Assembly (NCBI GenBank): GCA_964016885.1
Contig: OZ024741.1
Span: 225,742,001 to 225,806,000 of the forward strand
Length of the DNA: 64,000 bases
Source of the DNA: Eledone cirrhosa
Taxonomy: Eukaryota
Reading direction: 5' to 3'
Shown piece by piece: positions 1,256 to 62,960 of the stretch; position 1 is the first letter of the stretch; each line of letters begins with the position of its first letter. The translations under genes and the position numbers were made by a program. Below the pieces are notes generated by a model. It made no database searches. It saw nothing but the letters and a program-made list of their open reading frames with translations, and had not been told where the DNA came from.

Positions 1256-1324
1256 GTTTTATCTGATGAATGCACAAATATTATTGCATGATGATATTTG
1301 TTTTTGAAATGCGCATAATAAAAT
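1256..1324 (+). ncRNA. Type I hammerhead ribozyme-like motif (GAAAU/AUA variant, palindromic stem III)
   Basis: gttttat-CTGATGA-[stem II caaatattat/atgatatttg]-GAAAT-gcgc-ATA-ataaaat. Stem I is ttttat/ataaaa and stem III is the palindrome ATGCGCAT. Confidence 0.6.
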
Positions 1325-1819
1325 ACATGGAACTCTTTTAACCATCTTTTGTTCTTATATTATATATATATATATATATATATATGTATTTATGTATACA
1401 TTTCTTGAAGGCCTCAGCGACCTCATTTTTCGGAGTTCGGTTGTTGGTGGATGTAATGTCGTAGTGCTGCACGTGTTGCTTTGTGATATCTCTTACCATC
1501 GCCTGGATCATAGATATGACTTTGGCCATCCCCCTCCCTGCCACTTAAGAATCGCCTTTATTTCTGTGTGTATATATATAAGGCATATTGTTCCCACGTG
1601 TGTGCGGGTTCAGAGAGGCATATACACACTTGTACGCCTACACACCAACCCGAAATCAGCCTCTGTAATACCTTACACTGGTCAGACACATCACGACTTT
1701 CATATCCCCAACAGTCATACATACATACATACATACATACATACATACATAGATACATACATACATACATACATACATACATACATACATACATACATAC
1801 ATACATACATACATACATA

Positions 1820-2715
1820 CGAGGTGGGTCAGAAAAGTTCCAGGACTGATGTCACAAAAGATTTATTTCAAACTTAAATTTCACACTAAGAGTTTTCTCC
1901 TTCAAAGTAATCCCCCTGGAGTCTAATGCATTTTTCCACCCTTCTCTGCCACACTTGCATGCACTCCTGGAACGATTCTTCCGGGCTCCTCCACAGTTCC
2001 GTCGTCACGGCTTTTTTGATGTCGTCTACGTCTTCAAAACGGGTCCTCTCCGGGTCGTACTCGAAGATCCATGACTCATCACCGGTGATGACTTTCCCTA
2101 GCAAGTCTGGTTCGGTTTCCAGATGTTCGAGGATGTCCTGGCACACTTGCATGCGTCGACCCTTCTGGTCATCGTTCAGCAGTTTTGGCACCATCTTTGC
2201 GCAGACTTTCCGCATGTCAAAATCTTCAGTGAGAATCTTCCAGACGCTGTCCCGATTCATGCCCAGCTCATTTGCCATCAGTCGAACAGTCAGCCGACGA
2301 TCGCTACGCACCATCTGCCTGATGCGCGCAACGTTGACCTCAGTCCTCGTTGTTGAGGGCCTTCCGCTCCTGGTGTCATATTACACGTCCTCGCGTCCTT
2401 CTTTAAACCTCTTGCACCACTCAAAAACACGTGAGCGTGACATCGTTTCATCTCTATACACTTGCTGCAGCAATCTCGGTGCTTCTGACGAAGTTTTCAA
2501 GTTTGTACGTTGCTCTGTGCTCATTGCTTGCCGACCTGAAACAGTGGACATGTATATAAAATTAAGAAGAAAAAAGTTTGATCGCTGCAGAGAGCTAAGA
2601 TTACAGTTACACACTACAGGGGGATTACTTTGAAGGAGAAAACTCTTTGTGTGAAGTTTGGGTTTGAAATAAATCTTTTGTGACATCAGTCCTGGAACTT
2701 TTCTGAAACACATCG
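1820..2715 (-). mobile_element. Tc1/mariner (mariner-family) transposon, internally deleted, inserted in (ACAT)n
   Basis: TA on both sides (1818-19, 2716-17). TIR cgaggtgggtcagaaaagttccaggactgatgtcacaaaagatttatttcaaac has its reverse complement at the right end. Transposase remnants lie inside. Confidence 0.93.
1886..2524 (-). pseudogene. Mariner transposase pseudogene (stop/frameshift, most of the DDD domain deleted)
   Basis: Motifs [51 protein letters not shown] are fused directly to the C-terminal RFEDV...GDYFEG. Confidence 0.9.
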
Positions 2716-2747
2716 TACATACATACATACGTGCGTACATACTTACA

Positions 2748-3793
2748 TGGTGGCTGCCAACTCGTTTTCGAGTACGGCCACTACTTTATATCCATGTAGG
2801 AGAACCCCTACCGATGCGTTGAACAAGTGTGATTTTTAGTCCAGCCAACGACTTGAAAACTATGGTACAAACACTACACTTGTGACAATTATTGACACAT
2901 AGTGCTGGGCCCATGGTACCATGTGATGACAAGTGCAGAGAGATCTCCAGATACAAAGCAATGCCTGTGCCATGAAGCTTTTATAGTGAGCAAAGGCACT
3001 GCACAAAGCCAGTCCCACTCTCTTAACCAAGATGATATTTACCAAAAAGAAGAACAAGTCAACATCATTGGATACCATCAGGGTTGCAGGTTTTATATCA
3101 GAGTTTTCCTTCTCCTAGAATTCTGCCTTGACAAAGGCTAAGGGGTCATCTCTCTCGGTGATTTTGGATGGCCATTGACTCTTAAGAGCTTCTTTGCCCT
3201 TTGATATATATACATACATATAATATATATACATGGTGGCTGCCAAGTCGTTTTCGAGTACGGCCACTACTTTATATCCATGTAGGAGAAGCCCTACCGA
3301 TGTGCTGAACGAGTGAGACTTTTTAGTCCAGCCAGCGACTTGAAAACTCTGATACAATCACTACACTTGTGACAATTATTGACACATAGTGCTGGGCCCA
3401 TGGTACCATGTGATGACAAGTGCAGAGAGATCTCCAGATACAAAGCAATGCCTGTGCCATGAAGCTTTTATAGTGAGCAAAGGCACTGCACAAAGCCAGT
3501 CCCACTCTCTTAACCAAGATGATATTTACCAAAAAGAAGAACAAGTCAACATCATTGGATACCATCAGGGTTGCAGGTGTTTTATCAGAGTTTTCCTTCT
3601 CCTAGAATTCTTCCTTGACAAAGGCTAAGGGGTCATCTCTCCCGGTGAATTTGGATGGCCATTAACTCTTAAGAGCTCCTTTGCCCTTTGACAGGTTTTG
3701 TTTTTAGTCCTGCAGGATGTCCAAAGTCACCCTCCTCACCAAGAAACCTTGGTGGGGTTGCCGGTTTAGTCGCCAACGACTCGACCATGAGAC
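2748..3793 (-). mobile_element. Two tandem copies (2748-~3200, 3235-3793) of a non-autonomous RTE-derived bipartite element (5'UTR + zinc-finger 3' end, (ATGT)n tail)
   Basis: Near-identical to the plus-strand copies at 31663-32160, 44717-45320 and 51325-51657. The 3' part encodes a CxxC...FKSLAGLKSH finger like the RTE C-terminus at 31190-31273. Confidence 0.75.
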
Positions 3794-4617
3794 ATACATA
3801 CATACATACATACATACATACATACATAATTACATACGTACGCACATACATACATATACAAGGTACACACACAAGAATTATAGCTCCTTTGTAGTTCTCT
3901 TATATGGGAATGATAAAACTACTCTATAAAAATTACACGCGTGTTTAGCTCCTGAAACAATTCCACGTCTCCTATTTATTACACTGCTTCCCTTCCTACA
4001 TCTATCTTTCGATAAAGGACAAACATCAGAGACTTTACGATTATTTTCCTACAATATCAAGCATTAAACTAATATATATATATATATATATATATATTTA
4101 CCATAAAAATATAAAATGTGTGTGGTAGAAACATTTTAAGCATTCTTGAATTATGAAGTTCACATTTTCTGAATTCTGATTTTATATTAATTTATTCTTC
4201 ATGAAATCGTTCACATAAGCAATGCTAAATTTACATAAACCAATATCATTTTCAAATAAGCTTCTTATAAAATATAATTATCAGCTTTAGTCACAAGAGT
4301 TATTTTCATGAATTTATGATACAGAAATATTTGAATTCATAAAATTTAAAATGCAGTATATATGCAATGCAAATTTAACACAAACACAGATCCTATACAC
4401 ACACACACACACACACGCACACGCACACACACACACACACACACACACACACACATATATATATGTATATATATATATATATATATATATATATATATAT
4501 ATATATATATATATATATATATATATGTATGTATAAATATATGTGTATATATATATGTATATATATTTATATATATATTTATATATAGATATGTATATAT
4601 ATATAATATATATATAT

Positions 4618-61150: not shown

Positions 61151-61757
61151 TATATATGGTAGTAATGGTGGGGTGATAATGTAATGCTAAATTCGCGAGA
61201 CACTTGAAAACAAATTCTAGCTACGTATTATATCATATATTTTATTACATTTTAGTCAAGTTTCATAATATTTATTATATAATTTCCTTATAAATAATAT
61301 AGTGTGATTTATTTCAACACAAGATTTGTGTCTTGTTTCTTTTTTTCTTTCGTTTCACTGTCTATAATATCATGTTCTTTCTCTGAAACAGATTTTTTTT
61401 CGCCGTTATATTGCTCTCTCTAAATCGATTTGAACAAAGGAAATATTTTCTATTTAAATGTGAAGCAATTATTGCAATAAATACTCTAAACTCTTTCCTT
61501 CCACACACAAAACCCACACGCATATATATATTTATAAATATAAAATGAAGAAGTCAGTGTGATCGAATCTTACATAATTTTGTGATTACTTAGTTACTGT
61601 TATATATTTCAGTGGTATCTATTATGTAATAGATACGACCTCACCAGTAAGGTATTGTATAGTCTATTGTTCACCGAATGATATGTCCCGAACGTATTTT
61701 GATATTACTCCTGTAACGACCAACTGACTTATGGATTACGTATAAGACTCTCTAGAT

Positions 61758-61958
61758 CAGGCATGTCAAACTGAGGGTCCACTGAAGGCCACGTGGGTCA
61801 CATATGTGTTGTCTGAGGGCCTCACACGACAACTAATTGCGCACATTACAATTTATTTCTTAAATTTTATATTACCAAGATAAAACATGATCGCGCTGTA
61901 AAAACGTTTGTGCGGGCTACAGGTGTGCTTGTAAAGAGCCACATGTTTGACATGCCTG
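61758..61958. mobile_element. hAT (Charlie-like) MITE, 201 bp
   Basis: 14-bp perfect TIR caggcatgtcaaac/gtttgacatgcctg. Imperfect 8-bp TSD ctctagat/ttctaggt with a TCTAG core. Confidence 0.85.
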
Positions 61959-62336
61959 TTCTAGGTAGCATCAGTTCATGGGGTGTAGTCTATGGAACCT
62001 ATTGGTAGATTTTTACTCATCTTCTTGATCATTCCATTGATGATTTAAGTTGTATTGGACCATATAAAGTAGTTGTTTTAGAAATGCCGTGTAGTGGAGT
62101 TTGATGTCAGCAGATCAAAGAACGAATACTACTTTAAGTATCAGTGGTTATGAGATTCAGTTTCCTTGTAGGTCCTTTTATTTCTTCATATTTTCTTCAT
62201 ATTTTTTATTGATTTGCTGGCACCAATGCAATTTGAAAACTCTTTTTCTTTGCGTGGGATGTTCTGACAACAAAACCAGGGACAACAAACAACAATAGAA
62301 CTATTTGTGGCTGTCAGTACAAAGTATTACTGGCAT

Positions 62337-62680
62337 GTGAAGGCGCATGGCTTAGTGGTTAGAGCATTGGGTTTGCAATCGGAAGATTGTGAGTTCGATT
62401 CTTGGACCGGGTGATGTATTGTGTCCTTGAGCAAGAGACTTAATTTCACGTTCCAGTTTACTTAGCTGTGGAAATGAGTTGCGACGACACTGGTACCCAC
62501 CTGTACTGGTCATTGCCTTTCCCTTCGACATCAACGGTGACGTGGAGAGGGGAGACTGGTATGCATGGGCGACTGCTGGTCTGCCACAAAACAACTTTGC
62601 CCGGACTTGTGCCTCGGAGGGAAACTTTGTAGGTACAAATCCCATGGTCATTCGTGATCGAAAGGGGTTTTTACCCTGAG
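62337..62680 (+). mobile_element. tRNA-derived SINE with CORE-like domain
   Basis: A box tggcttagtggttag, B box gagttcgattc, then gtgtccttgagcaagagacttaatttcac. Confidence 0.8.
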
Positions 62681-62769
62681 TATACATATATATATATATA
62701 TATATATATATATATATATATATATATATATATATATATATATATATATATGTATATATATATATATAT

Positions 62770-62960
62770 ATAACGAAGGAAAAGTGGTAAGGAACCAGGT
62801 GGACCATAACGCACCAAAGTACTCAATACTTGAGGTAGTAGAGTGGGTAATAGGAACCAGTAAGACCCCGACAGCTGAGCTCAAGCCGTTTCGACGGCTA
62901 ATTCTGAATTAGCCGTCGAAACGGCTTGAGCTCAGCTGTCGGGGTCTTACTGGTTCCTAT
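62770..62960. repeat. Fold-back of an HHR 3' half (family also at 19198-19250 and 33481-33615)
   Basis: Perfect palindrome 62850-62960 centred on 62905; GAAAC-ggct tgagctc agct-GTC. Confidence 0.7.

Follow-up and report, generated by a model that had tools for sequence, protein, structure and literature searches.

Hammerhead ribozymes at the ends of Penelope-like elements (PLEs) are already in print, among them that of an octopus Hydra element with a preference for (TA)n (PMC4209133; PMC8557442), and an Octopus bimaculoides Hydra element with a hammerhead is listed in the supplement of the second of these papers, where the reason why PLEs carry hammerheads at all is stated to be unresolved. 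PLE insertions are described as partial tandems with an inverted 5'-truncated copy and a tail at one end, placed in (TA)n targets (Craig et al. 2021, PMC8557442), and PLE hammerheads as cleaving in the form of dimers (Lunse et al. 2016, as cited in PMC6765202); the non-LTR (non-long-terminal-repeat) retrozymes of animals are derived from PLE ends in a 2026 preprint (bioRxiv 10.64898/2026.07.22.740005), and type-SGC ribozymes are reported to cleave in vitro (PMC10085705). The present account concerns a 64-kb stretch (C2:225742001-225806000, hereafter the window) of the 3.0-Gb genome of Eledone cirrhosa, AT-rich and with many microsatellites, for which an earlier examination of the letters alone (the original prediction) had claimed more than 20 hammerhead motifs. 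This observation is confirmed, the motifs being real, and what is already known of PLEs and retrozymes accounts for it. Two things go beyond the published record, the scale and one variant in which the core blocks stand in the order S-G-C, it being understood that the literature covered includes few subscription journals and that the supplements of PMC4209133, PMC7229834 and PMC10085705 may list cephalopod counts.

With the minimal type I hammerheads of PLEs (PMC4209133) the E. cirrhosa motifs share type I topology, a palindromic or loopless helix III, an extra nucleotide after A9 in some families, a U3-A8 variant, a predominance of single dispersed motifs from truncated PLEs, and pairs on opposite strands 100-700 bp apart; they differ in that several families have a long helix II (30-115 nt) or a stable helix III. 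The likeness to Hydra-clade PLEs (PMC8557442) extends to a C-terminal endonuclease, the motifs RW(K/R), DKT and CxCX5C, the (TA)n target, the tandem and inverted layout and the one-sided tail, whereas the family that matches the window has a U3-A8 core and a tail of about 85 nt rather than 30-40 nt. Animal retrozymes (PMC7229834; bioRxiv 10.64898/2026.07.22.740005) are likewise tandem units of a few hundred bases that have no open reading frame (ORF), carry one type I hammerhead each and co-occur with PLEs, but the E. cirrhosa units are mostly palindromic (TA)n insertions with two fixed ends.

The sequence CUGANGA occurs 46 times in the window, as against 22-26 times in shuffled sequence. Using a PLE-style type I descriptor (in which helices I, II and III enclose a core of CUGANGA, GAAA and NUH), 14 motifs were found, as compared with 0.02-0.03 in dinucleotide shuffles (maximum 1; two kinds of shuffle, 100 of each), so that in the comparison which the original prediction had itself proposed no similar count was seen. 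A wider descriptor adds three, giving 17 window motifs for the union of the two, all with a type I core and with helices I-III in type I order, against a shuffle mean of 0.23 (maximum 2; 30 shuffles). A classical strict descriptor was set aside, as it recovered only three window motifs because helix II mismatches and long helices are disallowed. The Rfam hammerhead models gave no window match at gathering score, and by E-value no hammerhead was present among the best 150 of 268 matches, those listed being microsatellite matches to microRNA models.

As to individual sites, 15 of the 22 originally taken as complete pass the descriptor, and the other seven each carry one defect in the window copy (the base of helix II at 1263, a helix I of only 3 bp at 19524, a helix II mismatch at 22363, helix III mismatches at 37653 and 38033, GAAG at 36238 and GAAC at 38522); all seven have intact-looking relatives elsewhere. 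Six further sites had been listed as degenerate or half copies. This was right for 33481 and 62850, which are 5'-truncated PLE ends, and for 21526 and 21875, which are decayed family members, but 57436 is complete, with a long helix II, and 53238 is unsupported: the candidate there (53245) was rejected together with those at 17056, 22053 and 25081, no homologous motif having been found in 1.33 Mb of loci. Sites that had not been listed are 59544(-), 58606(+), 19197(+) and the S-G-C motif at 17301(-). BLAST clustering of 36 candidate window sites yielded 17 clusters, and 13 families were left once four singletons without a homologue had been dropped, one family (57478/58606) being known from two window copies only. 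The claim of some 8-10 unrelated families thus holds as regards their being many; "unrelated" does not hold, the families being separate at BLAST level only and sharing one PLE biology.

An unbiased sample of 59 stretches of 10 kb (590 kb) was also drawn from contigs C1-C15 and C17-C24 at round-number positions (C25-C28 and the unplaced contigs lying outside it). In window and sample together, helix III is loopless in 54 of 84 motifs, which is the dimer-type design of PLE hammerheads. Families in which helix III is stable (C, E, G and L) are predicted to cleave as monomers, and those in which it is palindromic (A, B, F, H and I) to require dimers. Among 57 distinct B-type motifs, six of the first nine helix II positions pair above shuffle (equalled in 0 of 1000), with swaps between A-U and G-C and between U-A and C-G, although the subfamilies are related and the sequences not independent. 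Within this otherwise covarying helix, position 4 is a fixed mismatch, C-C in 48 of the 57, possibly reflecting a tertiary contact.

The motifs sit 40-260 nt upstream of the 3' end of an element in (TA)n; (TA)6 lies within 240 nt of 13 of the 14 window motifs, as compared with 38% of random positions within 300 nt, and within 300 nt of 37 of 42 sample motifs, as compared with 29% (or 50% for random positions inside the same loci). The association is also one-sided: of 56 motifs, 51 have (TA)5 in the 300 nt that follow the cut site and 25 in those that precede it (the copies not being independent). Inverted pairs and tandem layouts are common among motif-bearing insertions, and the original description of (TA)n-bounded, often fold-back, inserts was therefore apt; a tandem and inverted layout, a tail on one side only and a preference for (TA)n targets, all of them seen here, are what is expected of PLEs. 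The end points, moreover, are fixed, with two per family. Family B ends 40-56 or 137-149 nt past the cut (44-54 and 98-174 in another count), and family A at two sites about 53 nt apart. In the Hydra family 21 ends are short and 27 are long, and a single site is where 26 of the 27 tails stop.

Three window families are connected with PLE coding sequence. Fragments of at least four types of PLE are present in the 590-kb sample, and genome searches with PLE endonuclease ends each gave the best 150 scored matches out of 16,000-66,000 first-look candidates (which are not copy numbers), with open frames of up to 775-1,217 codons across the families searched; many of the PLE copies in the genome are young. 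In one of these endonuclease families (P0004), whose copies are 96-98% identical, 28 of 30 loci have a 3' end that matches the window's half copies, and a hammerhead that is complete, its core being of the U3-A8 kind, is present in the full element. At one locus (L273) there is a 3,531-bp head-to-tail tandem of ORFs encoding reverse transcriptase (RT) and endonuclease, with a U3-A8 hammerhead before each and an inverted copy at the end; window positions 62681-62906 are 98% identical to it over 227 nt, and its protein, with RWK-like, DKT and CxCX5C motifs and a C-terminal endonuclease, belongs to the Hydra clade (judged by its motifs). Two other PLE families end in hammerheads, P0001 in 27 of 30 loci and P0002 in about 26 of 30. 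Pfam RVT_1 and GIY-YIG match P0002 and the protein of L272; they do not match the Hydra-type or L271 proteins, both of which were assigned by motif.

In 27 of 38 copies of family L (the Hydra clade), 1 of 13 of family J and 1 of 31 of family B, a PLE ORF lies upstream on the same strand without any intervening (TA)n. For J, the endonuclease end at L038 is 49% identical to the L271 protein, and the family B copy has a Hydra-type endonuclease end upstream across an unbroken 1.4-kb untranslated region (UTR). An RT and GIY-YIG ORF attached to a hammerhead end was thus found for families L, J and B only. The L271 locus itself (C3:369335000-369343500) holds at 1988-5626 (-) a PLE with a 1,213-codon open frame, a long asparagine-rich insert and no Pfam match, and its hammerhead has a very short helix I, with two helix III variants among the copies. 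The RT fragment at 37136 was considered as a Naiad and rejected, its relatives having a C-terminal endonuclease and canonical type I hammerheads; a DNA search with 37090-37430 returned mostly the adjacent non-LTR 3' end. Families A, G and S-G-C, with one family from outside the window, form ORF-less tandem units with a period of 415-646 nt, and those of A (470 bp) and G (518 bp) bear a type I hammerhead each, as do non-LTR retrozymes.

It is very probable, on this evidence, that the motifs lie just upstream of the ends of elements which in three families match PLE 3' ends and in the others are likely to be short non-coding sequences relying on the enzymes of PLEs, multiplied by a copying mechanism that would run along the following lines. 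Hammerhead cleavage would reduce tandem or read-through transcripts to single units, for the most part in dimeric form, given that the palindrome of helix III is short. A nick in (TA)n would be made by the PLE endonuclease, and RT, starting at two fixed sites, would extend copies onto either side of the break, which would yield fold-backs of which one end is longer. Copying that stopped early (5' truncation) would leave mostly short 3' ends, so that the hammerhead is the part most often retained, and (TA)n tracts would accumulate nested insertions of many families. As the two end points are on the downstream side of the cut site and copies continue upstream across it, a circular RNA, or one not yet cut, would have served as template; the end-point data fit a circular template but do not set it apart from an uncut tandem RNA.

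Several points weigh against this picture. The end-point counts include some overlapping loci, and the 27 of 38 for family L was drawn mostly from loci fetched by their ORF. The links for J and B are one locus each, with an upstream ORF in 0 of 19 further family B copies; families A, B2, C, D, E, G, H, I and S-G-C gave no ORF link with a protein query set from which Naiad was absent, and the one ORF match of family F is the neighbouring window fragment, no partner having been found. In the 24 matches listed for the Penelope/Poseidon-like family P0003 (L150-L173), the first 1 kb past the ORF end holds no CUGANGA core that belongs to the family, which may carry a further core variant. Many copies are mutated, and many are probably inactive; published PLE hammerheads, for their part, are described as cleaving weakly (PMC4209133), and only one of nine Xenopus retrozyme dimers is reported to cleave (bioRxiv 10.64898/2026.07.22.740005).

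The alternative that survives best, though an unlikely one, is that the ORF-less families A, G and S-G-C are RNA replicons, i.e. circles amplified by a host polymerase, occasionally reverse-transcribed and independent of PLE proteins. Tandem units of that length without an ORF, and the high sequence diversity of the families, would suit such an origin, but the (TA)n target, the inversion and the two-end geometry are the same as for the autonomous Hydra PLE, and RT and endonuclease would still be required for integration. Retention for host roles, such as RNA processing in introns or UTRs, is very improbable: abundance alone would presumably place many motifs in transcripts, yet the copies are young (within-family identity 90-98%), nested in microsatellites and often singly mutated at core positions. 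The inverted arms, the TA flanks and the mariner remnant in the window might suggest that the fold-backs are DNA transposons at TA resembling miniature inverted-repeat transposable elements, with the hammerheads as passengers, but the arms are unequal, the centre of inversion is not the same from copy to copy, many copies have one arm only, and RT and endonuclease ORFs are reached by following these ends inwards, so that this explanation, largely refuted for families L, J and B, can hardly be credited. Chance matches from AT-rich fold-back DNA, which do occur with the wide descriptor in one satellite and with the S-G-C descriptor (see below for both), have a negligible probability as a general explanation and are refuted for the type I set by the shuffle counts in window (14 vs 0.03; 17 vs 0.23) and sample and by the compensatory changes.

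The S-G-C motif calls for separate treatment. A scan for this block order, which is a non-circular permutation, finds one motif in the window, at 17301 (-); the descriptor alone does not rise above shuffles in the sample (2 vs 0-4), and support must therefore be drawn from the family, that is, from its copies and their covariation. There are 1,712 first-look candidates, the best copies being 96-97% identical, and the three copies in the 590-kb sample would correspond to roughly 10^4 per genome, a very uncertain figure. In an alignment of eight hand-picked sequences 95.7% of cells are paired, and 6 of 23 pairs are changed on both sides as compared with 2.4 in shuffled alignments (a result reached in 1 of 500). 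A ninth sequence, L183, was omitted as misaligned. That locus carries, at 3299-3405 (-), a second and divergent S-G-C motif, with an 8-bp helix III and a 6-bp helix I, which cannot be aligned to the window family.

In block order, in helices I and III and in an intact core, the family agrees with the type-SGC hammerheads, HRIMA-1 (Eckert et al. 2023, PMC10085705); it differs in being an animal-genome repeat where those are metatranscriptome examples, in a helix II of one pair whose 3' strand goes to an upstream segment, and in a helix III that continues through a predicted kink-turn. Helix I, helix III and the extension of helix III hold up in the alignment. A continuous helix II between blocks C and G was not found in the family: helix II is a single covarying pair (U-A, U-G, C-G), and the 3' strand of the G block pairs with the upstream segment. 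The absence of a continuous helix II means that the motif is best filed as working like type SGC and not as a member of it. The kink-turn itself is a prediction, read from the kink-turn consensus. The published 3' ends of Naiad_Obim and Naiad_Ovul show, by eye, the same block order with different but complementary helices; Naiad_Ovul was marked "HHR_half_core" by its authors, and both of these octopus elements are reported to lack a canonical hammerhead. A Naiad origin of the S-G-C family is likely, and the motif is predicted to cut itself.

Turning to genome-wide density, the strict descriptor finds 42 motifs in the sample (shuffles 0-1), which extrapolates to 2.1 x 10^5 per genome, and the union descriptor 76, or 67 without the satellite locus L052 (shuffles 1-3). 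The nine wide-descriptor matches in this locus (C7:30000001-30010000), an AT-rich satellite with a period of about 830 bp that mimics a U3-A8 hammerhead, were judged to be false and were dropped by judgement before the estimate was made. The resulting 114/Mb (bootstrap 76-154) extrapolates to 2.3-4.6 x 10^5 motifs per genome. The enormous load that the original prediction had foreseen is thus supported, but its proviso that the window be typical is not quite borne out: at 266/Mb the window exceeds the sample by a factor of about 2.3 (P about 0.014), largely because of eight family A copies. The 84 motifs of sample and window taken together fall into 19 clusters, of which nine are singletons. 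Schistosome satellite copy numbers are high and could rival this density. Published counts are 126,247 for axolotl and about 5,000 for mussel (PMC7229834), and about 9,000 for X. tropicalis and 4,000 for coelacanth (PMC4209133), to be set beside an extrapolated 2-5 x 10^5 here, the descriptors differing. The axolotl figure, in 28.21 Gb, amounts to about 4.5/Mb, making the E. cirrhosa sample (all hammerheads) roughly 25 times denser, only approximately so for the same reason.

We regard it as an even chance that three further things hold jointly: that this is the densest and most diverse hammerhead load so far described for an animal (about 100/Mb, with at least 19 families in 0.65 Mb), that the S-G-C motif, with its kink-turn and split helix II, is an active ribozyme and the one "missing" from Naiads, and that the ends are a record of PLE enzymes having reverse-transcribed RNA that was circular and had been cut by the ribozyme. 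If so, non-circular permutation, known from environmental RNA, would through the S-G-C motif be extended to the genome of an animal, and the idea that Naiads spread with no hammerhead would need revision. The E. cirrhosa genome has young autonomous elements, short dependents and both monomer-type and dimer-type ribozymes side by side, with fixed ends that predict the template, and this makes the question of the hammerhead's role testable. Some 3 x 10^5 motifs (extrapolated), of a type that Rfam did not detect here, form a large natural library of variants, and the Rfam miss is a caution for repeat and RNA annotation; the word "ribozyme" is absent from the main text of a 2026 octopus repeat annotation.

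Table 1. Hammerhead motifs and associated insertions in the window (positions are those of the window).
Feature	Position	Strand	Remarks
Type I hammerhead, family B2, palindromic helix III	1257..1323	+	Base of helix II mutated; intact copies L050, L066, L179
Family A insertion, subfamily A1	4616..5340		Inverted partial copy and forward unit; (TA)n at both ends
Hammerhead in family A1 insertion	5094-5136	+	Predicted cut after 5130
Family A palindromic array	5363..7905		ORF-less units of ~470 bp; centre 6427/6428
Hammerheads of family A array	5660-5704, 6130-6174	-	
Hammerheads of family A array	6681-6725, 7151-7195, 7613-7657	+	
Type I hammerhead, family C	12796..12846	+	Looped helix III
Element ending in S-G-C-order hammerhead	17279..17600	-	3' end in (TA)n
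S-G-C motif within this element	17286-17364	-	Predicted cut after 17345
Type I hammerhead, family B, palindromic helix III	17706..17766	+	AUA triplet
3' half of U3-A8 hammerhead and Hydra-clade PLE 3' terminus	19197..19250	+	5'-truncated; 100% over 54 nt to L273
Type I hammerhead, family D	19521..19561	+	Helix I only 3 bp; relative L265
Type I hammerhead, family E	19841..19901	-	
Family E copy	21527..21585	+	GCAA replacing GAAA
Decayed family D copy	21850..21960	+	
Minimal type I hammerhead, family F	22332..22367	-	One helix II mismatch; L218 intact-looking
3' end (half hammerhead and tail), relative of Hydra-clade PLE	33468..33647	+	5'-truncated; 82% over 180 nt to L273
Family G hammerhead, inverted copy	36166..36245	-	GAAG variant
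Family G hammerhead	36642..36720	+	5-bp helix III; first helix I pair mismatched; ORF-less ~500-bp unit
RT fragment of 44 codons, Hydra-type PLE	37136..37267	+	Catalytic YRDD; in fold-back with arms 36760-36893 and 37087-37220
Family F hammerhead	37649..37684	+	Helix III mismatch
Family B hammerhead	38027..38088	+	Helix III mismatch
Family B fold-back insertion	38290..38712		One short and one long end
Hammerhead of family B fold-back	38337-38391	-	Intact
Hammerhead of family B fold-back	38517-38571	+	GAAC variant
Family A fold-back insertion	51670..52360		Hammerheads 51940-51982 (-), 52113-52155 (+)
Type I hammerhead, family E	52445..52499	-	
Complete type I hammerhead, family I	57363..57483	-	Long helix II; no homologue outside window (1.33 Mb of loci)
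Inverted twin of family I	58601..58724	+	Helix III mismatch
Type I hammerhead, family H	59076..59223	+	Helix II domain of ~115 nt; palindromic helix III
Family J: 3' UTR, hammerhead (59506-59548) and tail of C-terminal-endonuclease PLE	59290..59718	-	92% over 411 nt to L038 (has ORF end); tail 79% over 62 nt to L271 ORF start
Fold-back of Hydra-clade PLE 3' terminus	62773..62957		Two half hammerheads; (TA)n on both sides; short end on right, left tail ~85 nt longer

The recognisable long ORFs of the window all come from mobile elements. Two near-identical open ORFs of 1,174 codons, at 39883-43407 and 45517-49041 (-), belong to non-LTR retrotransposons (Pfam RVT_1 and zf-RVT) flanked by (ATGT)n, and are probably a very recent tandem insertion; their C-terminus presumably resembles a restriction-like endonuclease. 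A broken RTE-like element at 27552-31273 (+) retains endonuclease, RT and zinc-finger pieces (labelled by eye), a further broken element of restriction-endonuclease type lies at 23839-25030 (-), and the remnant of a mariner-like transposase at 1798-2737 is flanked by inverted arms of 125 nt.

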